Part shown: positions 7,511-22,735 of the stretch, one piece after another
Numbering within the stretch: the stretch's first letter is position 1
Layout: the number at the start of each line of letters is the position of its first letter
Source of the DNA: Clostridium sediminicola
GTDB taxonomy: Bacteria; Bacillota; Clostridia; Clostridiales; Clostridiaceae
DNA length: 64,000 nt
NCBI RefSeq assembly: GCF_050402865.1
Contig: NZ_BAABMF010000007.1
Location: forward strand, 8,141 to 72,140
Direction of reading: 5' to 3'
Notes under the pieces: generated by a model
Told to the model about the DNA's origin: nothing
What the model saw: only the letters and a program-made list of their open reading frames with translations
Database searches by the model: none
Translations under genes and position numbers: made by a program

Positions 7511-7540
7511 AAAAAAAGAGCTGTAATTCGCTCTATTTTA
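7511..7540. terminator. Short hairpin flanked by A and T runs (AAAAGAGC-tgtaattc-GCTCTaTTTT), bidirectional terminator-like
   Basis: Read directly from the sequence. It lies between the araD-like gene end and the aspA start. Confidence 0.4.
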
Positions 7541-7541
7541 A

Positions 7542-8234
7542 TTAGTATTTCTGACCATAATAAGCATCAACGCCATGTTTTCTTAAAAAATGTTTATCTA
7601 ACATATAGTTTTCTATTTCTGTTTGTTCTTTATTTAAAGTTAAAGTCCTATATGCCATTTTTGCAACTTCTTCCATAACTACAGCATTATGGACAGCTAC
7701 CATCGGATTTTTCCCCCATGCAAATGGTCCATGGTTATAAACTATAACCCCCGGAACTGCAACAGCATCCATTCCACTAAATCTTTCAACTATTACATTT
7801 CCAGTCTCTAATTCATATTCATTTTCAACTTCTTCTTTTGTCATTTTTCGAGTACAAGGTATTGTTCCATAAAAATAGTCGGCATGTGTGGTACCAAAAC
7901 AAGGTATTTCCTTTCCTGCTTGTGCCCAACTTGTAACCCAAGGAGAGTGAGTATGTACAACTCCACCCAGTTCTGGGAAAGCTTTGTATAAAACAAGATG
8001 AGTTGGCGTGTCCGATGAGGGGTTCAGTTCACCTTCCACAACATTTCCTTCTAAATCTATAACTACCATATCGCTAGCTATCATATTATCATAAGAAACT
8101 CCACTTGGTTTAATTACAACCAATCCCTCTTCTCTATCAATCCCACTCACATTACCCCAAGTGTAAGTAATTAAACCTCTCTTTGGTAGTTCAAGATTTG
8201 CCTTTAGTACCTTTTCTTTTAATCCCTCTAACAT
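7542..8234 (-). CDS. L-ribulose-5-phosphate 4-epimerase (AraD/SgbE/UlaF class II aldolase family)
   Basis: Collinear with AraD: ...[28 protein letters not shown]...HTHS. Length is 230 aa. Confidence 0.85.
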
Positions 8235-8405
8235 GAGTTCCCTCCCTTTTAGTCTTAATTTACTTTTAAATTACACTATAAGATGAAACCGTCTCACACG
8301 TAAAGTAGCACATCCTACAGACCTTTAGGCCCCAACATAAATTTATCCCCTCCATTATAAAAAATTTGTGAGTGCAAATTGAATTTATAATGTTATGGAA
8401 AATAT

Positions 8406-9248
8406 TTAGTCAAATTTTGATCTTAAAAAATTACATGCAAATTCTAATTCTTTTTTCCAATCAGAGTTTTCTTTATACCAAAACTCTCCTGTAAACATAT
8501 TAACACCTGATTTTCTTAACTCTTTTATAACCCTTTCAAATTCAACATGACCAGTGCCAAATGGAACTTCTCTAAATATACCTGGGATAGTTTCTTTCAA
8601 ATGTACAGCTACAACTTTTCCTATTCCTTTAGATATATCATCTATAACATTAGTGTTATACATCTTTGATGCGTTTGTGATATTACCTATATCTGGATAA
8701 ACATTCAAATACGGTGAATTAATCTTTTCCACATATCTCATAGCTTTTTCAACAGTATTCATGAATTCCGTTTCCATTGTTTCAAAACCTAGAAGAACTC
8801 CTTTTTTTGCTGCATATTCTACACTTTCTTTTAAATTCATACCGAAACGTTCTATTGTTTCAGGTGAAGATTCTTCATAATAGACATCATACCCTGCTAT
8901 TTGAATTATTCTAATCCCTATATCACTTGCAAAATCAATAGCTTTTCTCATTATTTCCATACCCTTATTGACTGTTGATTCAAAATTACTCCCTAATGGA
9001 TATTTTCTATGTCCACTTAAGCACATTGTTTTTATAGGCATTTCCATTTTATACATTGCATCTACTAATTCTTTTTTATCATCATAACTCCAATAAAGTC
9101 TTTCTAGTTTCTCATCAGTTTCATCAATACTAATTTCCATAAAATCAAAACCCGCAGATTTTCCTGCTTTTAATTTTTCTTCTAACGAAAGATAATTTGG
9201 CATTGATTTCTCATATACACCCAATAGATATGTCATAAAAACCTCCAT
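8406..9248 (-). CDS. L-ribulose-5-phosphate 3-epimerase-like sugar-phosphate isomerase/epimerase (UlaE/SgbU type, xylose-isomerase-like TIM barrel)
   Basis: LGVYEKS...EEKL..AK..GFDF.E.SIDE motif arrangement as in UlaE. The true start is possibly the internal Met at 9236. Confidence 0.7.
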   Translation of the reverse strand: MEVFMTYLLGVYEKSMPNYLSLEEKLKAGKSAGFDFMEISIDETDEKLERLYWSYDDKKELVDAMYKMEMPIKTMCLSGHRKYPLGSNFESTVNKGMEIMRKAIDFASDIGIRIIQIAGYDVYYEESSPETIERFGMNLKESVEYAAKKGVLLGFETMETEFMNTVEKAMRYVEKINSPYLNVYPDIGNITNASKMYNTNVIDDISKGIGKVVAVHLKETIPGIFREVPFGTGHVEFERVIKELRKSGVNMFTGEFWYKENSDWKKELEFACNFLRSKFD

Positions 9249-9263
9249 TAAATTAACAAGTCT

Positions 9264-10775
9264 TTAGAATTTTTTCCATAAACTATCCAAAACTTGAGAA
9301 GTTTCTTTATATAATTCAAATTTAGATTGATAGATTTTAACATTTTCCCTAATAGGTTCTACTCGCTGTTTAATTTTAACTAATTTATTAGCTGCATCTT
9401 TTAAGTTTTCAAATACTCCTGCTGCTACTCCTGCGGCCATGGCAGCTCCTAATGCCCCTAATTCCTTTGTTTCAATAATTTCAATAGGTAAATTGAGTAC
9501 ATCTGCAAATATTTGAACCCAAACTTTAGAATTTGCAGCTCCTCCAGCCAGTCTTACTGATTTAGGTTTTGAACGATTCATAAAGAGTTTTTCAATATGG
9601 ATCTTATGACAAAAAACTACTCCCTCAAAAACTGAACGAGCTATTTGTTCTTTTGTATGGGAACTATCCATTCCAATAAAAGATGCTTTAGCCTGAGGAT
9701 TGTAATTTGAACCAAAAATATAAGGTAAAAATATAATGTTCTGTTCATCAGGTTTAACAGATTCCACCATTCCATTAATTATTTCGTAAACACTTATTCC
9801 TCTTTTTTCAGCTAATGCTTTTTCTTCTTGCATAAATTTATTTAAGAACCATTCATTATTAGCAGCAGACGTAGGACTACATTCTTCTACCAGGTAGTAA
9901 CCAGGAATACAATATAGTGAATTCATCATCACGGTTTTATTAAGAACTGGCTCCGTTGCAATATATTCATTGATACTCCATGTGCCTGCAATTACGCAAA
10001 GATTTTCTTCATCAGTTATATCCATAGCAATAGCACATGCATCAATATCAAACATTCCAGCGGCAACTGGTGTACCTATAGCAAGACCAGTTTTTTTACT
10101 AGTTTGAGGTGTAATATAACCTGATACCTCTGTTGAATATTTTAATGGAGGCAATTTGTCATATATATCTTCTAATCCAAAATCACACAATAGCTCTTTG
10201 TCATATTTTGCTTCTCTAATATTTACAAAGTTAGATCCTGAAATGTCAGTAATTTCAGCATTAGCCTCTCCTGTAAGTTTGAATCTGATATAATCCTTAA
10301 CACCAAATATCCATTGCGTATTTTGAATAACTTCAGGTTCATTATCCTTTAACCAACTGACTAGAGATACTGGTTGGCACGCTAAAACTTTTTGACAAGT
10401 TTTTTCAAAAATTTTCTCAGCAGTACCATCCTTTTGCCATTTTTCCGGATACATATATGCCCTTGTATCAGTTGAAACAATACCTTTATATGCAGGTTTC
10501 TTATCTTTTCCCCATAAATAAAGGCCTTTTCCATGCCCTGAAAGTGATAATCCTAAAATCTCCCTTGGTTCTATTTTTGCATTTTCTATTGCTCTTTTTA
10601 TGACTGAACAATTAACCTCCCATAAAACATCCATGTCTCGCTCTGTACGCCCTTCTCCAGGGGTAATTAACTCAACTTGTTCATATGCTGTAGCTACTGT
10701 ATTTCCATCAATATCAAAAATAACTGCCTTTGTATTTGTCCCACCATTATCTAGACCTAATAAATATTTTCCCAT
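9264..10775 (-). CDS. FGGY-family carbohydrate kinase (L-xylulokinase-like)
   Basis: LGLDNGGTNTKAVIFD N-terminal actin-fold motif. Length is 503 aa. Its context with the two epimerases resembles sgbK/lyxK. Confidence 0.75.
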   Translation of the reverse strand: MGKYLLGLDNGGTNTKAVIFDIDGNTVATAYEQVELITPGEGRTERDMDVLWEVNCSVIKRAIENAKIEPREILGLSLSGHGKGLYLWGKDKKPAYKGIVSTDTRAYMYPEKWQKDGTAEKIFEKTCQKVLACQPVSLVSWLKDNEPEVIQNTQWIFGVKDYIRFKLTGEANAEITDISGSNFVNIREAKYDKELLCDFGLEDIYDKLPPLKYSTEVSGYITPQTSKKTGLAIGTPVAAGMFDIDACAIAMDITDEENLCVIAGTWSINEYIATEPVLNKTVMMNSLYCIPGYYLVEECSPTSAANNEWFLNKFMQEEKALAEKRGISVYEIINGMVESVKPDEQNIIFLPYIFGSNYNPQAKASFIGMDSSHTKEQIARSVFEGVVFCHKIHIEKLFMNRSKPKSVRLAGGAANSKVWVQIFADVLNLPIEIIETKELGALGAAMAAGVAAGVFENLKDAANKLVKIKQRVEPIRENVKIYQSKFELYKETSQVLDSLWKKF

Positions 10776-10809
10776 TATAACCTCCCAATAAAGCTAGCTA
10801 AAGAAGTAT

Positions 10810-11598
10810 CTATAATTTTTTATCCACCGCTTCAATTTCACAAAGTAATAATTTGCATATTACCTCATTGCCAGCAATAATAGATACATTTCTATCATCT
10901 CTAAAGTGAATTATATCTCCACCGGCTTCATGAACTAAAAGTATTCCTGCTGCAACATCCCAAGTCTTTACATCTACTTCCCAATATCCATCAAAATATC
11001 CTGCTGCAACATATGAAAGGTCAATAGCCGCTGCACCACATCTCCTGAAGCCTCTTATTTTAGGAATAATTTTCGATGCATAAGAAACATTATTCACTTC
11101 ATTAATTGACCTATCGTAAGGAAACCCACTGGCTACAATTGATTCATTTAATTTATTTTTACATCCTACTTCTAATTTTCTTTCATTTAAAAATGCGCCT
11201 TCACCTTTTATTGCGGAGAATATTTCATCCATAACAGGTACATAAACAACTCCTAATACTGTTTCATTTTTATATTGGAGTGCTATAGAGATTCCAAACC
11301 AAGGTATCCCATTAGCATAGTTATTCGTACCATCAAGAGGATCAATAATCCAAAGGTAATCTGATTCATTTTCAAAAATCCCACTTTCTTCTGAAAGTAT
11401 AGCATGTTCAGGATAAGTATTCTTAATATGATTTAGTATTATATCTTCTGAAAGCTTATCTACTTCTGTTACTAAGTCTATACAAGTGGACTTTGAATCA
11501 ATTAAAAGAAATTTCTTTCTAAAGTTAGTAAGTTGAACACTGCCTACTTCTTTAGCAAGGGCTTTTATGTCAGACATCACTTTATATAAATTTTCCAT
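10810..11598 (-). CDS. inositol monophosphatase-family phosphatase
   Basis: WIIDPLDGTNNY and the downstream WDVAAG motif of the IMPase/FBPase fold. Confidence 0.8.
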   Translation of the reverse strand: MENLYKVMSDIKALAKEVGSVQLTNFRKKFLLIDSKSTCIDLVTEVDKLSEDIILNHIKNTYPEHAILSEESGIFENESDYLWIIDPLDGTNNYANGIPWFGISIALQYKNETVLGVVYVPVMDEIFSAIKGEGAFLNERKLEVGCKNKLNESIVASGFPYDRSINEVNNVSYASKIIPKIRGFRRCGAAAIDLSYVAAGYFDGYWEVDVKTWDVAAGILLVHEAGGDIIHFRDDRNVSIIAGNEVICKLLLCEIEAVDKKL

Positions 11599-11630
11599 GA
11601 TTCGCCTCCTAACTTACAACTAATGATTTT

Positions 11631-13166
11631 TTAATTTCTTATACTATTTAACGCTGACATATTATCTTTTAAATTAACGTAAACTTTCTTATATTCTTCG
11701 AAAATTTCATCATATAGTTTTATATTTTCTGGATTAGGTTCTATTGTACTATCAAATTCTAACCATTCAGATATTATACTTGAATCTTCAAAAACTCCAG
11801 TGCCTAAGCCTGCTAATAAAGCATCTGCTAATGGTGCTTCAACGTCATTTTTTATGATTTTCACTGGTTTTCCTGTAACATCAGCAAAAATTTGTGGCCA
11901 TTGCTTTGATTTGGATACTCCACCTACAAGAATAATTTCTTTGTCTAACTTCACACCCGTTCCATCTACCATTTCCATGTTATGACGTAATGAATAAGCT
12001 ACGCCTTCCATAAATGCTTTATATAAGTGGCCCTTGTGATGAACTAAACTTAGGCCTAATATTGTTCCTCTTGCTTTACTATCCCATATTGGACTTCTTT
12101 CACCCATGAAGTAAGGAAGTAAAAGTAAACCTTCTGAACCTGCTGGTACATCTTTTGATTTTTCTTCTAACAATGCATAGGCATTAACTCCAGTTTCTTT
12201 CTCTTGAGCTAATTCTTCTCCTCCTAAAGCATCTCTAAACCATCTAACTACAGCTCCAGCAGTTGCTGCTCCACCAAATGTATAGATTTTATTTTTTGAA
12301 TCTATTGTATGAGGCATACTTACTAGATTTTCAGAAAGATTGGGCTCTTCAGTTACAAAACCCCAACACATTGAAGTTCCTGTCATTGCAACATGATTTC
12401 CTTCATTAAAAGCTCCTGCACCTACTGTAGCTACTGGTGCATCAACACCTCCACAGATAATTGGAGTACCAACTTTTAATCCTGTTCTTTTAGCTGTTTC
12501 TTCAGTAATTCCTGCCACAATTTCAGTACACTCAACTAATCTTTCAGGGAAAAATTCAACTGGTACTCCTAATTTATCAAGCATATTAGCAGACCATTTT
12601 CTTTCCTTTAAATCATATACTCCACCAATATTTCCTGCTGAAGAATGATCTACTGCAACTTCTCCAGTTAGTTTATAAACTATGTATGATGCTGGCGGCA
12701 ATAAGTATTTTATTTTGTCCCAAATATCAAGATTGTTTTTCATCCAAAGAATTTTTGTAAATCCAAAATATGAATTAACTGAATTACCTGTAACTTGGAA
12801 TAATTCATCTAAATCAATATTTTCTTTAACCCATTTAACTTCTTCTTCTGCTCTACGATCCATCCATATTAAACATGGTGCTAAAGGATTCATTTCTTTA
12901 TCAACTGGTATCCCAGAACCACCATACAAACTACTAATAGCTACACCTTTTATATCTTCTATGTTAACTTTTGATTGGTCAACTACTCCCTTTATTGTTG
13001 CAAAGGTTGCATCCACCCAAGGTTCAGGCCATTGTTGAGCCCATGAAGGTTTAGGTGTTTCAACATCATAACCTTTATAATTGTGTGCTAACACATCACC
13101 AGTATCATTTATTAGTACTGCTTTTGTTCCTTGTGTTCCAATATCTACACCAATTACATATTTCAT
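11631..13166 (-). CDS. FGGY-family carbohydrate kinase (xylulokinase-like)
   Basis: IGVDIGTQGTKAVL N-terminus and GGGS/GG.SKS C-terminal motifs. Length is 511 aa. Confidence 0.8.
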   Translation of the reverse strand: MKYVIGVDIGTQGTKAVLINDTGDVLAHNYKGYDVETPKPSWAQQWPEPWVDATFATIKGVVDQSKVNIEDIKGVAISSLYGGSGIPVDKEMNPLAPCLIWMDRRAEEEVKWVKENIDLDELFQVTGNSVNSYFGFTKILWMKNNLDIWDKIKYLLPPASYIVYKLTGEVAVDHSSAGNIGGVYDLKERKWSANMLDKLGVPVEFFPERLVECTEIVAGITEETAKRTGLKVGTPIICGGVDAPVATVGAGAFNEGNHVAMTGTSMCWGFVTEEPNLSENLVSMPHTIDSKNKIYTFGGAATAGAVVRWFRDALGGEELAQEKETGVNAYALLEEKSKDVPAGSEGLLLLPYFMGERSPIWDSKARGTILGLSLVHHKGHLYKAFMEGVAYSLRHNMEMVDGTGVKLDKEIILVGGVSKSKQWPQIFADVTGKPVKIIKNDVEAPLADALLAGLGTGVFEDSSIISEWLEFDSTIEPNPENIKLYDEIFEEYKKVYVNLKDNMSALNSIRN

Positions 13167-13231
13167 ATTCCCAGCTCCTTTTTTTAATACTATTTCTAAT
13201 CTTTTTTGTACTTGTTATTATACCTACTAAC

Positions 13232-13274
13232 TTATATTGACAGGTCATTTAAACTTTATGACCTGTCAATATAA
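13232..13274. repeat. 17-bp perfect inverted repeat TTATATTGACAGGTCAT-N9-ATGACCTGTCAATATAA, intercistronic
   Basis: Read directly from the sequence, 4 nt past the stop of the polyol dehydrogenase gene. There is no U-tract on either strand. Confidence 0.5.
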
Positions 13275-13277
13275 TCC

Positions 13278-14354
13278 TTATGGCTTTAATAATATCTTTT
13301 TATTTTTAGGATTTTCAGCTTTTTCAAATGCTTCTTTAAAATCTTTAAGATCGTACACAGCTGACACAATTCCTTCTGCACTAACTAATCCTCTTTCAAA
13401 TAGGTCAATAGCAACAGGATATGTATATGGTGATAAATGAGAACCTCTTACATCTAATTCTTTTCTGTCCCCAATAACACTCCAGTCAGTAGTAGTTTCT
13501 TGTCCAAATACACTAAACTCTATAAATCTACCTAGTTTTCTAATCATTTGTAATCCTTGTTTAACTCCAACAGGTGATCCAGTAGCTTCAATATATACAT
13601 CACAACCGTAACCTCCTGTAAGTTCTTTGACAATTTTCATTACATCTTCTTCTTTTGGATTTAATACTAAATCTGCTCCAAACTTTTTAGCAGTTGCTAA
13701 TCTTTCATTATCTAAATCCAATACAATTAATTTCTTAGGAGTTTTTAATTTAATCAACTGAACCATACAAAGACCTAAAGTCCCTGCACCTGCCAATACT
13801 ACTACATCTTCAAATTCTATATTTGCTCTTTGTATTGTATGAATCGCACATGCCATAGGCTCTAATATACTAGCTTCTTCAAAAGTTAATCTATCTGGAA
13901 TTTTATAAATTTCAGAATTAGATCCAAATTTCATATATTCTGCCATTGATCCTTCAGCAACATCCTTTTGAAAACCATAAATGTTATGAACTTCACACAT
14001 CCAATACTTACCACTTTTACAGAATCTACATTCTCCACATGGGTTAATTTGATCTGTTGTTACTCTATCTCCTATTTTTATATTATGTTTTTCAGCTGCA
14101 CCTTCTCCTAATTCCACAACAATACCATAAAACTCATGACCAGGTATAACCGGTGCTTTTAGCCAAGGATTGTCTCCACCCCAGAACATATCAGATCCAT
14201 GTGATGCTTTTAAATCACTTCCACAGATTCCTGCGTGACCAATTTTTACAACAACATCCCCAGCACCTGCTTTTGGTCTTTGAACCTCTTCTAATCTATA
14301 ATCTCCAGGCGCATGAACTACTACCGCCTTCATCATTTCAGGTAATTTTTTCAT
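13278..14354 (-). CDS. Zn-dependent medium-chain polyol/alcohol dehydrogenase (sorbitol/L-arabinitol dehydrogenase-like)
   Basis: GHEF.G catalytic zinc site, CGECRFCKSGKYWMC structural-zinc motif and a GAGTLG Rossmann motif. Confidence 0.8.
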   Translation of the reverse strand: MKKLPEMMKAVVVHAPGDYRLEEVQRPKAGAGDVVVKIGHAGICGSDLKASHGSDMFWGGDNPWLKAPVIPGHEFYGIVVELGEGAAEKHNIKIGDRVTTDQINPCGECRFCKSGKYWMCEVHNIYGFQKDVAEGSMAEYMKFGSNSEIYKIPDRLTFEEASILEPMACAIHTIQRANIEFEDVVVLAGAGTLGLCMVQLIKLKTPKKLIVLDLDNERLATAKKFGADLVLNPKEEDVMKIVKELTGGYGCDVYIEATGSPVGVKQGLQMIRKLGRFIEFSVFGQETTTDWSVIGDRKELDVRGSHLSPYTYPVAIDLFERGLVSAEGIVSAVYDLKDFKEAFEKAENPKNKKILLKP

Positions 14355-14433
14355 AGTAAACCCTCCTCATATATTTTCAATTATTGTTTTTATATATTTT
14401 TAATAAACATTTATATCATTATTTATTTGAAAC

Positions 14434-15420
14434 TTATTTTTTCTTTTTAGAACTAAAGTAGATTGCCAAAAGGATTATTAGCCCTTTAATAACTCTTTGG
14501 AAGTAAGGTGATACTCCCATAAGATTCAACCCATTACTTAAAACTCCTATTATTAGTGCACCTATTAAAGTTCCAACAATATGGCCACGTCCTCCTGCTA
14601 TATCTGTTCCACCTAATACAACTGCTGCTATTGCATCTAATTCAAATCCTACACCAGCCATTGGTTGACCAGACATTAATCTTGAAGTCAATACCATTCC
14701 ACTAATAGCTGCTGTAACAGAACTTATAACGTATGCCATGATTTTGTATTTTTTAACTTTAACACCTGATAAACGAACAGCTTCTTCATTGCCTCCAATA
14801 GCATATATATATCTTCCTATTGGTAGATGATTTAAAATCACATAAGCAATTGCGTAAATAATTAACATAATAATAACTGGCATTGGTATTACATTAAACA
14901 GATATCCGCGACCAATGAAAGAAAAAGATTTTGGTAAACCTGCTAAAGGATATCCTCCTGTGTATAAAAGAGCTAATCCTCTAGGAATTTCCATCATAGC
15001 AAGAGTAACAATTATTGGAGGCATCTTTGCATATGCTATCAATGTTCCATTTATCAAACCAATGATAGCACCTATTAAGATACCAACTAGTACTGCTACC
15101 GCAGGATGTAACCCTAGATTAACCATTGCACCTGCCATAATAGTTCCAGTAAATGCCATAACAGCTCCAACTGAAAGGTCTATACCTGATGTTAAAATTA
15201 CAAAAGTCATACCTACTGCTAAAACTCCATTAATTGATACTTGTCTAACAATATTCATTAAATTATCAGGAGATAAAAATCTTCTAGATGATATTGCCAT
15301 TAGTATACATAAAACAATAAAGCCAATAAAGGTAATTAATTCCTTTCTTAAACCAATTGTTGATTCTCTTTTTATAATACTCTTTTTCAATTGTTTATTA
15401 TTTTTAGTTGATTCACTCAT
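14434..15420 (-). CDS. sugar ABC transporter permease (RbsC/monosaccharide type)
   Basis: About 9 predicted TM helices in an RbsC-like pattern. The start is reassigned to the ATG at 15420 (MSESTK), which overlaps the upstream ATPase stop as ATGA. The ORF-track start at 15492 would overlap the ATPase gene by 80 nt. Confidence 0.8.
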   Translation of the reverse strand: MSESTKNNKQLKKSIIKRESTIGLRKELITFIGFIVLCILMAISSRRFLSPDNLMNIVRQVSINGVLAVGMTFVILTSGIDLSVGAVMAFTGTIMAGAMVNLGLHPAVAVLVGILIGAIIGLINGTLIAYAKMPPIIVTLAMMEIPRGLALLYTGGYPLAGLPKSFSFIGRGYLFNVIPMPVIIMLIIYAIAYVILNHLPIGRYIYAIGGNEEAVRLSGVKVKKYKIMAYVISSVTAAISGMVLTSRLMSGQPMAGVGFELDAIAAVVLGGTDIAGGRGHIVGTLIGALIIGVLSNGLNLMGVSPYFQRVIKGLIILLAIYFSSKKKK

Positions 15421-16915
15421 TAATTCCACCCCCGGTTGCATAATACATAATTCTTTCTTGACTTGCTTCCTCTCTAGAAAGTTCTCCTGCAATATTACCC
15501 TTATGCATAACTAATATCCTGTCACTCATGCCTAAAATTTCTGGAAGCTCAGATGATATCATAATTATAGAAATACCATTGTCAACCAGTTCTTTCATCA
15601 ACTTGTATATTTCTGCTTTTGCTCCTACGTCAATCCCTCTAGTGGGTTCATCAAAAATTAGAATACCACTTTCAGTATTTAAACATTTTGCTATAACTAC
15701 TTTTTGTTGATTACCACCACTTAAGTTTTTAACCCATTGCAAAGAACTTGGTGTCTTTATCTTTAAGCTTGATATATATTCATCAACTATATTTTTCTCT
15801 TTTATTTTATTTAGTAAACTATATTTATTTACAATCTTATTTATAGAACCTAAACTAATATTATTCCTAACAGATGCTTCTAAAACCAGTCCCTGGTTTT
15901 TTCTATCCTCTGGTATCAAAGCAATGCCATGATTTAGCGCTTCATAAGGAGATTTTATTCTAATATTTTTACCTTTAATTTCAATTACTTTTTCCTCTGC
16001 TTTATCTGCTCCAATTAATGCTCTAACGGTTTCAGTTCTTCCTGAACCTACCAAACCTGAAAGACCAAGAATTTCCCCTTTATGCAACTTAAACGATACT
16101 CCATTAACTTTTTTGTTTTTAAGGTTTTTGACTTCTAGAACAACTTCTTTATCAAATTTAGAACCCAAGCTTTTAGGGAATGTATCCTTCAATTCTCTAC
16201 CTACCAGCATTCGAATAATATCTTGTTCAGTAACGTTTTCCATAGAATCTGTTCCAATCCATTTACCATCTCGTAAAACAGTCATTCTGTCAACAATCTG
16301 GAAAAGTTCGTCCATATGATGAGAAATAAATACCATAGTTACACCATTTTTTTGAAGATTCTTCATTAAATTAAAAAGATGCTTAACTTCTCCTTCTGTT
16401 AACGTAGCAGTTGGTTCATCTAATATCAATAGTTCCGCATTAACAGATATAGCTTTTGCTATTTCAATGAATTGTTGCTCCGCTACACTTAATTCTGATA
16501 CTGTTTTATCCAAGTCAACTTCAACGTCAATTTTATTTAATAATTCTTTAGCCTTTTCTCTCATTAAATTCCTATTTAATAAACCATTCTTTTTTCTTAG
16601 CTCTCTTCCTAAAAATATATTATCTACGGAATTTAAGTATGGAATCAAACTAAACTCCTGATGTATTATTGCAATTCCTAATTCCTGAGCTTGTTTTGTG
16701 TTATCTAAATGGATTTCTTTGCCTTTAAAAAATATTTTCCCACTGGTAGGTTTATAAATTCCAGATAAAATCTTCATTAATGTGGATTTTCCAGCTCCGT
16801 TTTCACCTACAAGAGCATGAATTTCTCCACTAGTTAAATCTAAATTCACTTCATCTAATGCTTTTACTCCCGGAAACTCCTTAACTATATCCTGTAACTG
16901 TAGAATTTTATCCAT
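15413..16915 (-). CDS. sugar ABC transporter ATP-binding protein with duplicated NBDs (RbsA/MglA type)
   Basis: Two NBDs. The first has Walker A GENGAGKST and signature-like LSVAEQQ; the second has LSGGNQQK and ILIFDEPTRGID. Confidence 0.9.
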   Translation of the reverse strand: MDKILQLQDIVKEFPGVKALDEVNLDLTSGEIHALVGENGAGKSTLMKILSGIYKPTSGKIFFKGKEIHLDNTKQAQELGIAIIHQEFSLIPYLNSVDNIFLGRELRKKNGLLNRNLMREKAKELLNKIDVEVDLDKTVSELSVAEQQFIEIAKAISVNAELLILDEPTATLTEGEVKHLFNLMKNLQKNGVTMVFISHHMDELFQIVDRMTVLRDGKWIGTDSMENVTEQDIIRMLVGRELKDTFPKSLGSKFDKEVVLEVKNLKNKKVNGVSFKLHKGEILGLSGLVGSGRTETVRALIGADKAEEKVIEIKGKNIRIKSPYEALNHGIALIPEDRKNQGLVLEASVRNNISLGSINKIVNKYSLLNKIKEKNIVDEYISSLKIKTPSSLQWVKNLSGGNQQKVVIAKCLNTESGILIFDEPTRGIDVGAKAEIYKLMKELVDNGISIIMISSELPEILGMSDRILVMHKGNIAGELSREEASQERIMYYATGGGINE

Positions 16916-16996
16916 CTTAACCTCCCTCTTCTTTTATATTATTTATTTAAGAGTGGCACTCTGTATATCCAGAGTGCCATTTTTTAATTATTATTC

Positions 16997-17944
16997 TTAC
17001 CAACTAAATCCTTTAGCATTTTCACTTGTTAATAATTCAACATCTACTGGTACTTCAGCTGGAACATGAGCACCTAGGTATTTAGCTAATGCTATACCAA
17101 AACCAATTCTAACTTGATCACGAGGATATTGAGCTACTGTAGCTTTGAATATTTTCCCATCCAACACTGCTTCAACTGCTTCTGGATGACCATCTACACT
17201 ATAAAGAGCAACGTCTTTTCCCGCACCCTCAATAGCTGCTAAAGATCCTAAAGCACCAGTATCATTAACACTAAATATAGCATCTAAATCTTGATTAGCT
17301 TGTAACATGTTTTCTGTTACAGCCATAGCTGCACTACGTTCTTGTTTACCATTTTGGTTGTCAACGATTTCAATATCAGCATATTCTTTCATAGCAGCTT
17401 CAAAACCTCTTACTCTTTCAAGTATAGGAACTACTGGAATACCATTTAGAATCGCAACTTTACCCTTTCCACTTAAATCTTTTGCCATTTGTTGTCCTGC
17501 TAAGTAACCTGCATCATAGTTTTTAGAACCTACAAAAGAATCAATAGGACCATTTGCTTGTGCATCAATAGCAACAACAATAACTCCTGATTTTTGAGCT
17601 TCAACAACAGCCGCTTCAACACCAACACTATCAGTTGGGTTTAATAATAAAATCTTAACACCCTTTTGAATCATATCTTCTATATCGCTAATTTGTTTAC
17701 TTACATCATGACGAGCATCTGTTATAATAAGTTCAGCTCCTATTAAATCTGTTGCTTCTTCTATTGCTTCTTTCATTGTAATGAAATAAGGATTATCCAT
17801 TTCCTGGAAAGACATGCCAACGATTATTCCTTCAGTTTTTTCAGCATTAGCGTCAGTTACATTTCCTGCATTTGAATTATTTTTAGTTGCGCACCCTGTA
17901 AATGCTAAAGTTAACACCATTAATAAAGCTAATATTTTTTTCAT
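16997..17944 (-). CDS. sugar ABC transporter substrate-binding lipoprotein (RbsB-like periplasmic-binding-protein fold)
   Basis: Signal peptide plus lipobox (LAFTGCATKNN). Periplasmic-binding-protein type I pattern. Confidence 0.85.
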   Translation of the reverse strand: MKKILALLMVLTLAFTGCATKNNSNAGNVTDANAEKTEGIIVGMSFQEMDNPYFITMKEAIEEATDLIGAELIITDARHDVSKQISDIEDMIQKGVKILLLNPTDSVGVEAAVVEAQKSGVIVVAIDAQANGPIDSFVGSKNYDAGYLAGQQMAKDLSGKGKVAILNGIPVVPILERVRGFEAAMKEYADIEIVDNQNGKQERSAAMAVTENMLQANQDLDAIFSVNDTGALGSLAAIEGAGKDVALYSVDGHPEAVEAVLDGKIFKATVAQYPRDQVRIGFGIALAKYLGAHVPAEVPVDVELLTSENAKGFSW

Positions 17945-18074
17945 AAAAACCCTCCTAAAATTAAATTATTTACAAAACTAATATTTATAGACTTTTGAAT
18001 TGATTAATCCTTAATTCATTACACCTCCTCATATTAAGCCATCATTTAAGCACATTTTATTTTAGAAATAATTA

Positions 18075-18146
18075 TCACAAAAAATAAGTGCCTCGTAAAT
18101 ACACGCAAAGGCATAAAAACCTTAAACATGTTCTTACGAGGCACCA
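18075..18146 (-). terminator. Leader intrinsic terminator/attenuator upstream of the sugar ABC operon (candidate ANTAR antitermination target)
   Basis: The minus-strand RNA reads GGUGCCUCGUAA-(35 nt)-UUACGAGGCAC, followed by UUAUUUUUUG. This is an 11-13 bp stem plus U-tract, located in the 528-bp leader between the ANTAR regulator and the first operon gene. Confidence 0.55.
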
Positions 18147-18471
18147 TAACCTCAAGAACCCTGAATCTATCATAAACTCAGAATTCTAAATATTAAATTA
18201 TCACAATCTCATCCACAACCAATATAGTCACTTTGTACCAATCATAAGCACAACACTAACTATTTAATAATCAGTTTAAATCACTGTTAAGAAATTTTGC
18301 GACCAACTTTTAGGTTATTCTCTATTCTAAATATGTAATACAACAAAAATAGAAATAGATTTTTATAATATTATTTTCAAATTTAACCGTATACATCCGA
18401 CAAATTACAAAACATCTTGTACACATTTAAAGTATATTACTATCATAATTAAATGTCAAGTACAAATTAAT

Positions 18472-19059
18472 TTAATTACTTAAAATTTCACTAGCCTTTA
18501 TTATTTCCTTAGCTATGTCAATCATTTTTTTATTCTTATCTCTACTCATTTTTTGCAATCGCTTCATTGCATCATCTTCTCTTAAACTAAATCTATCCAT
18601 TAAAATTCCTTTAGCTTTCTCTATATATTTACGCCGTTTAAGTGCATTTTGAGTATCGTTAAGCTCACTCTTTATTTTTTCAAATTCCTCATATTTTGAC
18701 ATAGTAATTTCAATAGCAACTTTTAAATCTTGGATATCTATAGGCTTGATTAAATAATTAAACACTCCTTGTTTTGATGCTTTTTCAATTAGTTCTCTAT
18801 CATGATATCCACTTACAATTATACTTGGAATAATCAATTGTTCATTAAGCTTTTTAATTGCTTCAATTCCATCTAAAAGTGGCATATTAATATCAGTTAT
18901 TATTAAATCTGGTTTGTTTTTTCTTGCAATTTCTACAAGTTCATTACCATCGATAGCCTCACCGATAACTTCATGACCAAGTTGTTTTAAATTAGCAGAT
19001 AAACCCATTAGACATAAATATTCATCTTCAGCTATCAAAATTCTTAATGGTTTTTCCAC
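18472..19059 (-). CDS. ANTAR-domain response regulator (receiver + ANTAR RNA-binding antiterminator; EutV/AmiR/NasT type)
   Basis: The receiver domain carries the phospho-acceptor Asp (LIITDINMP). The C-terminal ANTAR motif reads IEKAKGILMDRFSL.EDDAMKRLQKMSRDKNKKMIDIAKEII. Confidence 0.85.
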   Translation of the reverse strand: MEKPLRILIAEDEYLCLMGLSANLKQLGHEVIGEAIDGNELVEIARKNKPDLIITDINMPLLDGIEAIKKLNEQLIIPSIIVSGYHDRELIEKASKQGVFNYLIKPIDIQDLKVAIEITMSKYEEFEKIKSELNDTQNALKRRKYIEKAKGILMDRFSLREDDAMKRLQKMSRDKNKKMIDIAKEIIKASEILSN

Positions 19060-19078
19060 AAACGTCCCCCCCTAAATA

Positions 19079-20962
19079 TTAATTATATTTCTTATATGTC
19101 ACAAAAACCTTATCATTCATCAACTTTATTTCTACTTTCGTACCTTTTTCTAATGGAATAAACTCTATACTCCCTTTAAATTCGTATTTTGCAATTGATG
19201 AGACAATAGATACACCTAAACTATCCATATTATTTTTTTCAAAATCTTTTGGTAATCCAACCCCATTATCTTCCACTGATAATAAAACAACATCTTTTAG
19301 ACGTTTACATCTCACAGCAATAATTCCCTTGCTCTCACCAATAAAAGCATGTTTCAAACAATTACTAATTAATTCGTTTATTATTAAAGCAATTGAAGTA
19401 GCTTTATTATAAGGTATAAATATATCATCTAACTCTAAACATATATCTAACTCTACATTCATAGATTTAAAAAAACTTGAAATTCTTACTACTATATCCT
19501 TTATATTTATAATACTTCTCCCTAATTTATCTGTAGCCAAAAGATCATGAACCGCAGCAATACTCTTTATGCGTGAAATAATATTATCAAGAATATTATC
19601 TAACTCATAACTTTTTTCTTTCTCTCCTACTTTCTTCTGCAAAGCTATAAGATTAACAATCGATTGAAGATTGTTTTTAATTCTATGATGACTCTCTTGA
19701 AGCAAAGCTGACCTACCCATCAACCTTGTATCTTCAATTGCAATTGCAGCATGCCGTACAAAAGCAGATAAGTATTTCGCTTCATCTCTGGAATGAGCAT
19801 ATAGTCTTTCGTAGTATATTTGAATAATTCCAGTTACACGAGATCTTATCAAAACAGGAACACAAATGATTGTCTTGACTTTATTGTTTAATTCAAAAAT
19901 TGAGAGATAATCTTTTTCACGTTTATTTGAATAATATAAATCATTTTTATGAACTACATTCAGAATAAATTCTTCTTTTAACTTGGCTTGTAATTCCTCT
20001 TTAATTTTAAATTCCAAAGTATCTATAATAGTATTAGTACTCTCATCTATTAAATGAATAGTACAGCCATCCGCATTCATAAATTTAATAACTTGTTTAG
20101 ATAATAATAGCAATACATCTTTTAACTCATATTCGGAAGTCAAAAATTCAGCAGCTCTAAATACTGCATCTAAAACTTCTTCACTCTCATAATCTATTTT
20201 TGTTTCACTTTTTTTATAATTAAATTTTCCTAAAAGATTTAATACTTCCTGAGGATTCTTTTTTGCTTCATCTGCTATAAAAGTTTTTTTCACTACACCT
20301 TCTGATAAAATAGAAATTCTGTCCCCAACTTTTAAAGCTTCTTCCCATTGTTTTGTGACATATAAAATACTTTTGCCTTCATTTTTACATTTATCAATAA
20401 GTTGGTATAACTTTTGAACATACTCTGAACTCAGATCTTCAGTAGGGTTGTACATAATTATAAGTTCTGGATTATTGTAAAATATTTTTGCTATGTAAAC
20501 TATTTTTTTTTGCTCACTTGATAATTTTGAGACTTTTTGCTTATAATTGACACTAAAATTTAAGTCTTCTAATATTCTCATTGCATTTTCTTTAGATCTT
20601 TTCCAATTAATAAAAGGAAAAGGTCTTTTTTTAGGAAAATAATTCAACACTATATTTTCGTAAACTGATAGTGTATCTACTAATGTAGACTCCTGAAATA
20701 AAAATGAGATATCTTTATTGGTATTAATTTGATTCATATCTAAATTTTCTTCTTTAAATATTACTTTACCTAATACATCCTTTTCTTCTCCCGAGATAGA
20801 TTTAATAAATGTTCTTGTAATAGAATCATTGCTCCCTACCAACGCGTGTACTTCACTAGATTTTATGTTTAGATTTAAACCTTTTAGATTATCTCCTACC
20901 AAATTAACACTTTTTAGATTTTCAATTTTGAAAATAAAGTCTCCCAAAGCAAACACCTTCAC
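19079..20962 (-). CDS. cytoplasmic sensor histidine kinase with an N-terminal degenerate ABC nucleotide-binding-like domain, a GAF domain, and HisKA_2 and HATPase_c domains
   Basis: Residues 1 to about 230 are collinear with the second NBD of RbsA-type ATPases, but Walker A is GSNDSITRT, Walker B is IIMYNPTEDL (no Asp-Glu) and the signature motif is LSSEQKK. A central GAF-like region follows. The H-box ESHHRIKNNLQSIVNLIALQ is HisKA_2/HWE type. HATPase_c motifs are ELISNCLKHAF and DNGVGLP. No TM segments are present. Confidence 0.8.
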   Translation of the reverse strand: MKVFALGDFIFKIENLKSVNLVGDNLKGLNLNIKSSEVHALVGSNDSITRTFIKSISGEEKDVLGKVIFKEENLDMNQINTNKDISFLFQESTLVDTLSVYENIVLNYFPKKRPFPFINWKRSKENAMRILEDLNFSVNYKQKVSKLSSEQKKIVYIAKIFYNNPELIIMYNPTEDLSSEYVQKLYQLIDKCKNEGKSILYVTKQWEEALKVGDRISILSEGVVKKTFIADEAKKNPQEVLNLLGKFNYKKSETKIDYESEEVLDAVFRAAEFLTSEYELKDVLLLLSKQVIKFMNADGCTIHLIDESTNTIIDTLEFKIKEELQAKLKEEFILNVVHKNDLYYSNKREKDYLSIFELNNKVKTIICVPVLIRSRVTGIIQIYYERLYAHSRDEAKYLSAFVRHAAIAIEDTRLMGRSALLQESHHRIKNNLQSIVNLIALQKKVGEKEKSYELDNILDNIISRIKSIAAVHDLLATDKLGRSIINIKDIVVRISSFFKSMNVELDICLELDDIFIPYNKATSIALIINELISNCLKHAFIGESKGIIAVRCKRLKDVVLLSVEDNGVGLPKDFEKNNMDSLGVSIVSSIAKYEFKGSIEFIPLEKGTKVEIKLMNDKVFVTYKKYN

Positions 20963-21292
20963 TCTTATAATTTACAATTTTTAATAACAATACTAAACAT
21001 ATACACCATATTTATATGTCCTTTACTTTATTTGAAGTATAATATACTTTTAATTCCAAGTCAATATCTCCCTTACTACGATATTCCATAAAACTACATT
21101 ATAATAAAAATAATTATCCAATTATACTTTACACTTATAATAATAAATTTATAAATTCTTTTAACATAAAAAATCTAAAATAGATAATACCAAATATCTT
21201 TAATACTAAAGCTTTTAATACTTTATTAATATTAGCATTATCTATTTTATTCAGAGAAAATTAACTTTTTATTCCATATCTTTATTTTAAAT

Positions 21293-22735
21293 CTATAATA
21301 TTGGCGATAACAACCGAGCAATAGACTCTTTAAACTGTATTCTTTTACTCCTTTTATCATATAAATTTTTTGTGATTTCTTCTGATTCCTTTATATCTTC
21401 ATTGAATATTTTTTCAATTTCTCCTGCAACATTATGATCATAAATAAAAGCATTAACTTCAAAGTTCAATTTGTAGCTTCTTATGTCCATATTTGCTGTT
21501 CCTACAGATGCAATTTCCCCATCAACCACTATAGTTTTAGCATGTAGAAATCCTTTATTATATTTATAACTTCGAACCCCTGATTTTATTAAATCACCTA
21601 CATAAGAATATGTTGCCCAATATACAAAAGGATGATCAGGCATATTAGGAATCATTATTTTTACATCAACGCCTGACAAAGCTGCTATTCTTAAAGATTC
21701 TAAAATACTATCATCAGGAACAAAGTATGGTGATTGAATATATATTCTCTTTTTAGCCGACTGAATCATTTTCAAATAACCATTTTTAATTTCTTGTTCT
21801 TCAGCATCAGGTCCACTAGTTACTATCTGAATACCTGTAGTTCCACAATCTGCTTTGATAGGAAAATACTTTTTGTGAAAATGAATCTCTTCTTCTGATG
21901 CATATCTCCAATCAAGTAAGAATCTCTTTTGTAGACTATCAACTGCGTCACCACAAATTCTTAAATGAGTATCTCTCCAATATCCAAATATTTTACTACG
22001 TCCTAAATACTCATCACCAATATTAAGACCACCTACATAGCCGATTTTACCATCAATCACAGCAATCTTCCTATGATTTCTATAGTTTACACGAATGTTA
22101 AAGTGCGGTATTTTGGAAGGGAAAAAAATTGCAACCTTCCCTCCAGCTTTTTTTAATTCATCAAAAAAATGCTTTGGAATTGTTCTACCACCCATAGCAT
22201 CATAAAGAAGTCGTACCTTAATCCCCTTCTTAGCCTTTATAATCAGCTCCTCTAAAATTTCATTTCCAATCTTATCAGGCTTATATATATAGTAACCTAT
22301 ATGAATATGATGCTTAGCTCCTCTAATATCTTCAATAAGTTGGGTAAATTTATCATTTCCATTAGTATATATTTTAACACCGTTATTTTGTGTATACAAA
22401 GAATTACTATATCTATAATTCATTCTAACCATATCAATATATCTATCAACTTTTGAGTCATTTATCGTAAGCTTTGCTTGAATCAACTCTTCATTCTGCA
22501 ATAGAAGTTTTTTGTGCAAAGCATCTTCTTCACTTTTTAAATCAAACATTTTTTTCCTATGAAAGTTTTGCCCTAATAATAAGTACAAAAAGAAACCAAT
22601 TCCTGGCAAAATAAACAATACTACTAACCAAGCCCATGTTGATGTTGGATTTCTTCTTTCAATAAAAATTAACAATATTGCAAGTAACATATTTACAATA
22701 AATAGAGTCACAAGAGCAAAATTAAATAAATTCAT
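21293..22735 (-). CDS. cls: cardiolipin synthase
   Basis: Two N-terminal TM helices and two PLD HKD motifs (HRKIAVIDG and HAKTIVVDG). Length is 480 aa. Confidence 0.9.
   Translation of the reverse strand: MNLFNFALVTLFIVNMLLAILLIFIERRNPTSTWAWLVVLFILPGIGFFLYLLLGQNFHRKKMFDLKSEEDALHKKLLLQNEELIQAKLTINDSKVDRYIDMVRMNYRYSNSLYTQNNGVKIYTNGNDKFTQLIEDIRGAKHHIHIGYYIYKPDKIGNEILEELIIKAKKGIKVRLLYDAMGGRTIPKHFFDELKKAGGKVAIFFPSKIPHFNIRVNYRNHRKIAVIDGKIGYVGGLNIGDEYLGRSKIFGYWRDTHLRICGDAVDSLQKRFLLDWRYASEEEIHFHKKYFPIKADCGTTGIQIVTSGPDAEEQEIKNGYLKMIQSAKKRIYIQSPYFVPDDSILESLRIAALSGVDVKIMIPNMPDHPFVYWATYSYVGDLIKSGVRSYKYNKGFLHAKTIVVDGEIASVGTANMDIRSYKLNFEVNAFIYDHNVAGEIEKIFNEDIKESEEITKNLYDKRSKRIQFKESIARLLSPIL

Follow-up and report, generated by a model that had tools for sequence, protein, structure and literature searches.

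We analysed a 64,000-nucleotide stretch of the Clostridium sediminicola genome (contig NZ_BAABMF010000007.1, positions 8,141 to 72,140; hereafter the 64-kb window), and within it a 527-nt intergenic leader at 17945..18471. The leader is on the minus strand, as are the genes and elements of the locus described below, and it lies between the gene of a REC-ANTAR response regulator (18472..19059) and the gene of a substrate-binding protein that starts at 17944. A first-pass annotation, made from the sequence alone, had placed a probable ANTAR-controlled leader here; its intergenic position stands, as do the two flanking genes, the ANTAR regulator and the substrate-binding protein at 17944, both of which profile matches confirm, whereas the length of 528 bp given for the leader is corrected to 527 nt. 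In the order of transcription, the leader carries a promoter, a lone hairpin (P0), a pair of hairpins (P1 and P2), a terminator hairpin, a U-tract, an orphan Shine-Dalgarno-like element and a ribosome-binding site. We find that P2 and the terminator are mutually exclusive, that the paired hairpins are conserved and covarying in orthologous leaders, and that the leader is very probably an ANTAR-type protein-dependent transcription attenuator.

The regulator, which is the presumed antiterminator protein, has 195 aa, with Pfam matches to Response_reg at residues 7-116 (84.6 bits) and to ANTAR at residues 135-187 (65.9 bits, cut-off 27.3), and thus shows the N-terminal receiver domain, coiled-coil linker and C-terminal three-helix ANTAR domain of the REC-ANTAR (EutV/PdtaR type) class. 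It aligns end to end both with Rv1626/PdtaR (1s8n, E = 2e-41), its closest solved homologue, and with EutV (6wsh/6ww6, E = 1.6e-33). The leader promoter is of sigma-70 type (18431..18459; TTGACA at 18459..18454, a 17-nt spacer and TATACT at 18436..18431), matches the consensus at 11/12 positions and is the best match within 16500..21500, with transcription predicted from its sequence to start near 18424.

Competition between the terminator and the upstream hairpins

Upon folding the leader, GGUGCCUCGUAA...UUACGAGGCAC forms the base of a long hairpin pairing 18145..18087, which is 59 nt in length, with a three-segment stem and two internal bulges. Six G-C pairs are found among the basal 13 pairs, and a U-rich tail, the tract UAUUUUUUG (18086..18078) as read from the sequence, follows directly, 135 nt before the binding-protein gene. 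Folded alone (18150..18078), the segment has a minimum free energy (MFE) of -34.0 kcal/mol vs a shuffle mean of -11.5 (z = -8.93), and 0/200 dinucleotide shuffles fold as stably. The hairpin and U-tract are thereby predicted to be an intrinsic terminator. The stem and U-tract of the first-pass annotation therefore exist and fold stably, while their span of 18146..18075 is corrected to 18145..18078. A simple terminator scanner did not call the hairpin, because its loop limit is only 3-8 nt.

The P1 core, CUGAGUU-UAUGAUA-GAUUCAG (18161..18181), forms 7 bp in the MFE structure and extends to a 15-bp helix (18187..18155), an extension that is kept in five Clostridium leaders. It is separated by a 7-nt linker from P2, GAGGU-UAUGGU-GCCUC (18138..18153), the predicted antiterminator hairpin, whose five base pairs in the MFE fold join 18153..18149 with 18142..18138 around the loop UAUGGU and are worth -5.8 kcal/mol alone. 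P1 and P2 together thus have the make-up of a dual-hairpin ANTAR target. P2 is the alternative small hairpin UGAGGUUAUGGUGCCUCG that had been proposed just 5' of the terminator stem, and it is real and overlaps the terminator 5' arm: its last three loop bases and its 3' arm (GGUGCCUC, GGU plus GCCUC, 18145..18138) are the first eight paired bases of that arm. It is through these shared bases that the second hairpin and the downstream terminator exclude one another, as is expected of ANTAR targets.

When the nascent transcript is folded at increasing length, P1 and P2 form first, and the terminator wins only after its 3' arm has been made. The complete terminator conformer reaches -48.9 kcal/mol vs -38.8 kcal/mol with P2 enforced, a difference of about 10, and under enforcement a truncated hairpin remains that ends 8-9 nt before the U-tract. 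Since the terminator is about 10 kcal/mol better and P2 is worth only -5.8, the default should be termination, and read-through would need P2 to be held.

Further upstream, P0 (UUGUGCU-UAUGAUU-GGUACAA, 18233..18253, -5.3 kcal/mol) has a loop of the same type as P1, lies 72 nt 5' of it and has no associated terminator. A P1-type third hairpin occurs in about half of the orthologous leaders, 51-77 nt 5' of P1, with covariance-model matches in at least nine other loci. By analogy with the successive-binding model of Walshe et al. (PMC8934654), P0 is a possible extra recruitment site.

Conservation, covariation and loop consensus of the dual hairpin

For the comparison across species, 25 homologues of the histidine kinase encoded at 19079..20962 were aligned and 63 loci were fetched, with one genome per species. 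About 50 of the 63 loci encode, besides an ANTAR regulator and sugar ABC genes of the CUT2 type, a full-length kinase with the same architecture. The arrangement of regulator gene, non-coding leader and transporter operon was found in 31 loci, from Clostridium, several Bacillaceae genera, Orenia, Halanaerobium, Tissierella, a Fusobacteriales metagenome-assembled genome (MAG) and Petrotogaceae/Thermotogaceae, which span at least six orders and three phyla. Their common layout consists of the ANTAR regulator gene, a promoter, P1, a 6-14 nt linker, P2 overlapping the terminator, and the sugar ABC operon. All 31 leaders have P1 6-14 nt 5' of P2, with the same kind of loop, and a P2 that overlaps the first 4-13 nt of the terminator 5' arm.

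Equivalent long terminators are present in the 31 orthologous leaders, with conserved position and geometry and free energies of -26 to -50 kcal/mol; their atypical length (about 60-75 nt) is common to the window and its orthologues, and their 5' arm begins with a conserved (G)GUGCC box. The RNAalifold consensus of the five Clostridium leaders predicts both the terminator, in which compensatory changes occur, and the extended P1. An ANTAR regulator gene lies directly 5' of the leader in all 31 loci and is adjacent in 37/37 sites when six further sites, described below, are included. Because the link holds whether the kinase gene is co-directional or divergent, the conserved unit is that of regulator, leader and operon.

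Next, covariation was assessed in the dual-hairpin alignment A2, which holds 30 sequences. Standard pairs fill 93% of its cells vs 82% in column shuffles, and pairing falls to 38-55% when the partners are slid against each other. In 45 cells both sides have changed vs 11.9 expected, a count reached in 0/500 shuffles. The P1 helix is 96% paired over the 30 sequences, with compensatory changes at five of its seven pairs, and its closing pair is U·G in 27 of the 30 hairpins. In P2 the GG/CC core is invariant and the outer pair covaries, being A-U in 13 sequences and G-C in 11.

A covariance model built from this alignment (R1) found six non-seed sites, each overlapping a strong terminator and each beside such a two-component system. 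Two of these are in Thermotogota loci, from MAGs of Thermotogaceae/Petrotogaceae (L029, 2942..2990; L024, 8459..8509), where a second dual hairpin with a terminator lies 5' of the kinase gene, which suggests autoregulation of the two-component system. The other four are in intergenic leaders beside the two-component genes of Lachnospiraceae/Oscillospiraceae-type loci: three lie just 3' of the kinase gene (L038, 4669..4716; L045, 8001..8044; L049, 7851..7892), and one is on the opposite strand, 5' of the regulator gene (L044, 4873..4921, minus strand). In these four loci the gene order is regulator-kinase and the kinase is 27-31% identical to the window protein, with the RNA architecture kept.

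A second model, R2, was seeded with sequences from Bacillaceae, Halanaerobiales, Orenia, a Fusobacteriales MAG and one unclassified Firmicutes MAG, and its seed excludes Clostridium, Tissierella and Thermotogota sequences. Run at full sensitivity on both strands of the 64-kb window, R2 gave just two matches with E < 0.01, P1-P2 (23.9 bits, E = 6e-4) and P0 (24.5 bits, E = 4e-4; 24.1 bits with R1), and the next match scored only 12.9 bits. It also recovers the left-out Clostridium, Tissierella and Thermotogota leaders. The dual hexaloop motif that the first-pass annotation had proposed to search for with a covariance model is thus present as a dual hairpin, found even by the clade-excluded model, and absent as a canonical hexaloop. 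As to a wider regulon, the R1 and R2 full-model scans of the 64-kb window gave no other match below E = 0.2, and no second dual-hairpin site was found by them inside the operon. A 14.5-bit match at 13025..13094 was rejected as an extra site; it lies inside the coding region of a kinase gene and lacks P1.

We then compared the loops with the canonical ANTAR target, which consists of two hairpins with hexanucleotide loops that have A at position 1 and G at position 4 (PMC3369931, PMC8934654, PMC8164766). The window loops are UAUGAUA in P1 (7 nt; 5 if U-A closes) and UAUGGU in P2 (6 nt), with the loop A and G at 18173 and 18171 in P1 and at 18147 and 18145 in P2. Over the 37 sites, P1 loops have 7 nt in 20, 6 nt in five and 5 nt in 12, and P2 loops have 7 nt in 21, 6 nt in 10 and 5 nt in six, and they depart in this from the hexanucleotide loop of the canonical target. 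The commonest loop is a heptaloop of the form N-A-N-G-R-N-U, in which A at position 2 and G at position 4 are invariant (41/41 heptaloops). U predominates at position 7, while position 1 holds U or C in heptaloops and U, C, G or rarely A in hexaloops. Some members can pair position 1 with position 7, which reduces the loop to an A-N-G-R-N pentaloop. A canonical A1/G4 hexaloop reading of the window hairpins was also tried and rejected, as no shifted register closes the stems.

Fox et al. reportedly described in 2009 a loop consensus of AANGRR for the enterococcal eut hairpins. We regard the present motif as homologous but shifted, because its A-N-G-R core, shared by this account with the EutV/EutW system, matches positions 2-5 of that consensus. 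The leader is not filed as a canonical member, because it departs in loop length and at A1, and a canonical ANTAR model could well score it negative, because its loops are not A1/G4 hexaloops; it almost certainly works like a canonical ANTAR target.

Proposed mechanism and alternative explanations

The proposed mechanism follows the antitermination logic defined for EutV, NasR and AmiR (PMC3369931; PMC8934654). Transcription would start from the constitutive-looking sigma-A promoter just 3' of the regulator gene (about 18424) and by default would stop at the U-tract 18086..18078 by means of the terminator 18145..18087, because this fold is favoured over the alternative by about 10 kcal/mol. 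Once activated, the kinase (19079..20962) would phosphorylate the REC-ANTAR regulator (18472..19059), a dimer of which would bind P0 and P1 at their loops, and then bind and hold P2 (18153..18138) as it emerges. Held in this way, P2 would sequester GGUGCCUC, the basal eight nt of the terminator 5' arm, such that only the shortened hairpin ending 8-9 nt before the U-tract could form, and RNA polymerase would continue into the binding-protein gene and as far as araD. The computation shows the structures, that they exclude one another, are conserved and covary, and that the genes are linked. Protein binding, dependence on phosphorylation and termination in vivo are inferred. The inducing signal is probably a pentitol or another polyol handled by the transporter.

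The ANTAR-target reading of the first-pass annotation is supported by the stable terminator, the competing P2, the dual hairpins, the covariation and the adjacent ANTAR gene. Several points weigh against it. The seed hairpin segments were picked by eye as hairpins, which inflates the pairing statistics, a selection bias that the non-seed matches and the clade-excluded model partly offset. The loci were retrieved via the kinase, and the co-occurrence of RNA motif and regulator is therefore ascertained rather than a genome-wide measurement. The strict A1/G4 hexaloop fits 0/37 P1 loops and 1/37 P2 loops when loops are called so as to maximise the stems. Additionally, a 9/12 promoter-like match with an extended -10 TG (TTTACG-17-GATAAT, 18099..18071) overlaps the 3' side of the terminator and could give some regulator-independent expression.

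This last match would also fit an arrangement in which the terminator merely ends the kinase-regulator unit, the operon has its own downstream promoter and the small hairpins are incidental, given that the match overlaps and follows the terminator, and that the terminator is placed 3' of the regulator gene with no other terminator between the two. However, promoter-like matches occur in this AT-rich region at chance level (34 vs 32.6 expected), and the better promoter (11/12) lies between the regulator and the terminator, where 24 of 30 orthologous leaders have a match of at least 10/12 as well, placed between P1 and the end of the regulator gene. An operon end also gives no reason for two to three covarying hairpins with conserved loops, one of which always overlaps the terminator arm; and the Lachnospiraceae-type element follows the kinase gene, the Thermotogota copy precedes it, and both are always ahead of genes. 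We consider such an operon end highly improbable. Only slightly better are the chances, still very poor, of an attenuator run by something other than the ANTAR protein, be it a small-molecule riboswitch, a different RNA-binding protein or the translation of a leader peptide. The conserved part of the leader is made up of nothing but short hairpins with conserved apical loops; this is the usual form of a protein site, and multi-helix junctions such as ligand-binding RNAs have are absent. The ANTAR gene is adjacent in every one of the 37 sites, and the loop core resembles known ANTAR loops. It is true that no Rfam model matches the leader and no known class claims it: across the 64-kb window there were 0 matches at the gathering threshold, and over 17800..18600 a search at E <= 10 returned only chance-level snoRNA, miRNA and sRNA matches with E > 1. 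Short open reading frames (ORFs) do begin at the AUGs in the P1 and P2 loops; yet the loop AUG varies, with A-C-G, A-A-G and A-G-G also found, and we take these ORFs for a by-product of the loop consensus, because they have no ribosome-binding site and are unconserved. As leader-peptide candidates, ORFs of 32-34 aa from the loop AUGs or near the 5' end were rejected on the same two grounds.

The regulator could, finally, bind P0, P1 and P2 and act on mRNA stability or translation instead of termination, a mode of action that has been proposed for actinobacterial ANTAR targets. Those RNAs are often found across a ribosome-binding site, among others that of sugar ABC binding-protein genes (PMC8164766), and the orphan Shine-Dalgarno-like element downstream in the window would fit as well. 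With P2 180 nt 5' of the ribosome-binding site and without contact to it, and with a P2 that overlaps a strong terminator in every locus, a geometry without purpose for a translational mechanism, this has the smallest probability of the three and can be given hardly any credence. The ANTAR-dependent attenuator is by far the most probable explanation of the leader.

Kinase, related systems and the controlled operon

The presumed signal input of the system is a soluble cytoplasmic histidine kinase of 627 aa (19079..20962), in which profiles identify, in order, a degenerate ABC nucleotide-binding domain (NBD), GAF, HisKA_2 and HATPase_c. The start of the protein is perhaps five codons inside the ORF, because the closest database protein, a C. 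sediminicola entry with 100% identity, has 622 aa. Its architecture is identical in 120/120 homologues listed (of 350 with E <= 0.001), many of which are mislabelled 'ribose import ATP-binding protein RbsA'. The N-terminal domain is most like the N-terminal half of the CUT2 ATPases AraG, AlsA, MglA and RbsA, is 29% identical to the operon's own ATPase and gives a significant fold-level match to ABC_tran (60 bits). Upon examining its motifs, we found GSNDSITRT at Walker A, IIMYNP at Walker B and VTKQ, with Lys in place of His, at the H-loop, which are not those of an intact ATPase. Among the 25 aligned family members, 22 lack GK[ST] at Walker A. None of the 25 has the Walker B Asp or the H-loop His, and at the latter position, inside a conserved T-K-Q-W-E-E motif, 23 have Lys. 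Because all three motifs are degenerate, the domain is, judged by its sequence, an ABC-type pseudo-ATPase that is catalytically dead.

This pseudo-ATPase domain may dock on the cognate transporter and couple kinase activity to transport. In the 'flux-sensing' BceS-BceAB system, a histidine kinase reads the activity of its cognate ABC transporter through physical association; the Bce kinase is a separate membrane protein without an ABC domain, whereas in the window a dead ABC domain is fused to a soluble kinase and the interaction is hypothetical. Taken further, the locus might represent an undescribed sugar-sensing pathway, a proposal that we put forward tentatively and hold to be possible rather than probable: the dead-NBD kinase would dock on the CUT2-type importer or its ATPase, report transport activity instead of ligand concentration, and switch the operon via an ANTAR antiterminator that has co-evolved with a heptaloop motif (N-A-N-G-R-N-U, two to three hairpins) which canonical searches would probably miss, the pathway being widespread in Bacillota and present also in Thermotogota and Fusobacteriota.

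Among known systems, EutV/EutW of the Enterococcus faecalis eut locus (PMC3369931, PMC8934654) has in common with the window a REC-ANTAR regulator with a cytoplasmic kinase, tandem hairpins of which the second overlaps the terminator 5' arm, and default termination, and the window regulator matches EutV over its full length. In contrast, the window family has mostly 7-nt loops with U, C or G instead of A at position 1, often a third hairpin and an unusually long terminator. The window also differs in having a single leader before a sugar-alcohol ABC operon, compared to four sites in the ethanolamine locus, and a kinase with an ABC-ATPase-like domain and GAF instead of EutW's sensor. In NasR-nasF of Klebsiella and AmiR-amiE of Pseudomonas, an ANTAR protein likewise stabilises a hairpin with a critical loop A and G and blocks the terminator (PMC3369931; PMC12591593), but these are one-component or partner-controlled systems (NIT domain, AmiC) that respond to nitrate or amide through canonical A1/G4 hexaloops. 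The mycobacterial pair PdtaS/PdtaR (Rv3220c/Rv1626) shares a homologous regulator and a HisKA_2/HATPase kinase core with a preceding GAF, while PdtaS is a GAF-PAS protein without an ABC domain, and the RNA targets are mostly translational and not terminator-linked (PMC8164766). Lastly, the BglG/SacY/LicT antiterminators with their RAT sites, a functional analogue in Firmicutes, also control sugar operons through protein-stabilised antiterminator hairpins that overlap a leader terminator, with transport activity as the signal, according to a 2025 antiterminator review (PMC12591593). They have an unrelated CAT-PRD fold, a single RAT hairpin and a phosphotransferase-system (PTS) phosphorylation signal in place of a two-component system beside an ABC transporter.

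The passages of that review consulted here treat only AmiR, NasR, EutV and Rv1626 as ANTAR cases, and carbohydrate operons come there only under the CAT/BglG family (PMC12591593). The supplementary tables of Ramesh et al. (PMC3369931) contain no sugar or ribose-type ABC operon among the terminator-linked ANTAR matches. The nearest precedent comes from Actinobacteria, where ANTAR RNAs have been linked computationally to the mRNAs of sugar transporters, for the most part at ribosome-binding sites (PMC8164766). In the literature we found no description of an ABC-domain kinase with an ANTAR partner or of ANTAR control of Firmicutes sugar ABC operons, an absence that is not proof of novelty. The ANTAR antitermination switch as a type is already known, and what appears to be new here is a broadly conserved variant of it before sugar-alcohol ABC operons.

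ANTAR antitermination has been worked out for a few nitrogen, amide and ethanolamine systems, and target searches use the hexaloop A1/G4 definition. The leader and its approximately 36 relatives form a coherent sub-family of broad phylogenetic range, which controls ABC importers for carbohydrates (polyols) and falls outside this definition. Given the heptaloops, the displacement of the conserved A by one position and the frequent third hairpin, current models likely under-count ANTAR regulons. Furthermore, a two-component system centred on an ABC domain that is a pseudo-ATPase bears on how cytoplasmic kinases sense transporter activity, and the findings annotate the regulation of sugar-alcohol operons in Clostridium, Bacillaceae and Halanaerobium genomes.

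The controlled operon runs, by gene order and profile matches, from the binding protein through AraD (7542..17944). It encodes an RbsB-like binding protein (16997..17944), a tandem-NBD ABC ATPase (15413..16915), a permease (14434..15492) and a Zn-dependent polyol dehydrogenase, and continues with an FGGY kinase, an IMPase-like protein, a second FGGY kinase, an L-ribulose-5-P 3-epimerase and an L-ribulose-5-P 4-epimerase (AraD). From these gene assignments, a pentitol or polyol route to D-xylulose-5-P is plausible. Most orthologous loci likewise have the dehydrogenase after the permease, and also the kinase if they extend that far. The minus-strand terminator-like sites between 17944 and 7542 are few and all intragenic (seven on both strands vs 3.7 expected), and a terminator scan places a terminator-like hairpin with a U-run directly past araD (7517..7534), the probable operon end. 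This is consistent with the earlier proposal that a single antitermination-controlled locus extends down to at least the 3-epimerase gene and perhaps to araD, as only intragenic terminator-like sites come before 7534..7517. A 15-bp hairpin, UGGCACUCUG...CAGAGUGCCA, lies between the binding-protein and ATPase genes (16949..16984) and has no U-tract on the operon strand; it is probably an internal stabiliser or a partial terminator that raises binding-protein mRNA over that of the downstream genes. The 171-nt gap between the 3-epimerase gene and araD (8235..8405) contains a weak promoter-like match (8304..8275), and araD may therefore also have its own promoter.

Additional elements were observed in the leader itself. 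A weak candidate alternative promoter lies directly 5' of P1 (TAATAT at 18195..18190, with TTGTGG as -35); it is at best a possible start, because the conserved P0 would then fall outside the RNA. The A/U motif AAUUUAAUAUU at 18189..18199, which recurs 14-20 nt 5' of P1 in 17 of the 31 leaders and in several phyla, could act as a further promoter's -10 box or belong to the RNA. Downstream, the ribosome-binding site AGGAGGG (17956..17950) and the ATG (17944..17942) of the substrate-binding-protein gene together occupy 17942..17956. The orphan Shine-Dalgarno-like element GAGGAGGUG (18022..18030) lies 3' of the terminator and 65 nt 5' of this real ribosome-binding site, and is followed by a two-codon mini-ORF, AUG-AAU-UAA (18019..18011). 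A comparable purine-rich element ([AG]GG[AG]GG, mostly then UG) is found 15-70 nt past the terminator in approximately 24 of the 31 leaders, in addition to the true ribosome-binding site and usually without a start codon. In function, the orphan element may stabilise the read-through mRNA, as it resembles a stabiliser of the STAB-SD type. No catabolite-repression (cre) site was found in the window leader at <=1 mismatch. At the same threshold, cre-like sites (TGWAANCGNTNWCA) are present in seven Bacillaceae leaders (L008, L010, L012, L016, L020, L027 and L031), all of them 3' of the terminator and never 5' of it, which suggests an added CcpA roadblock.

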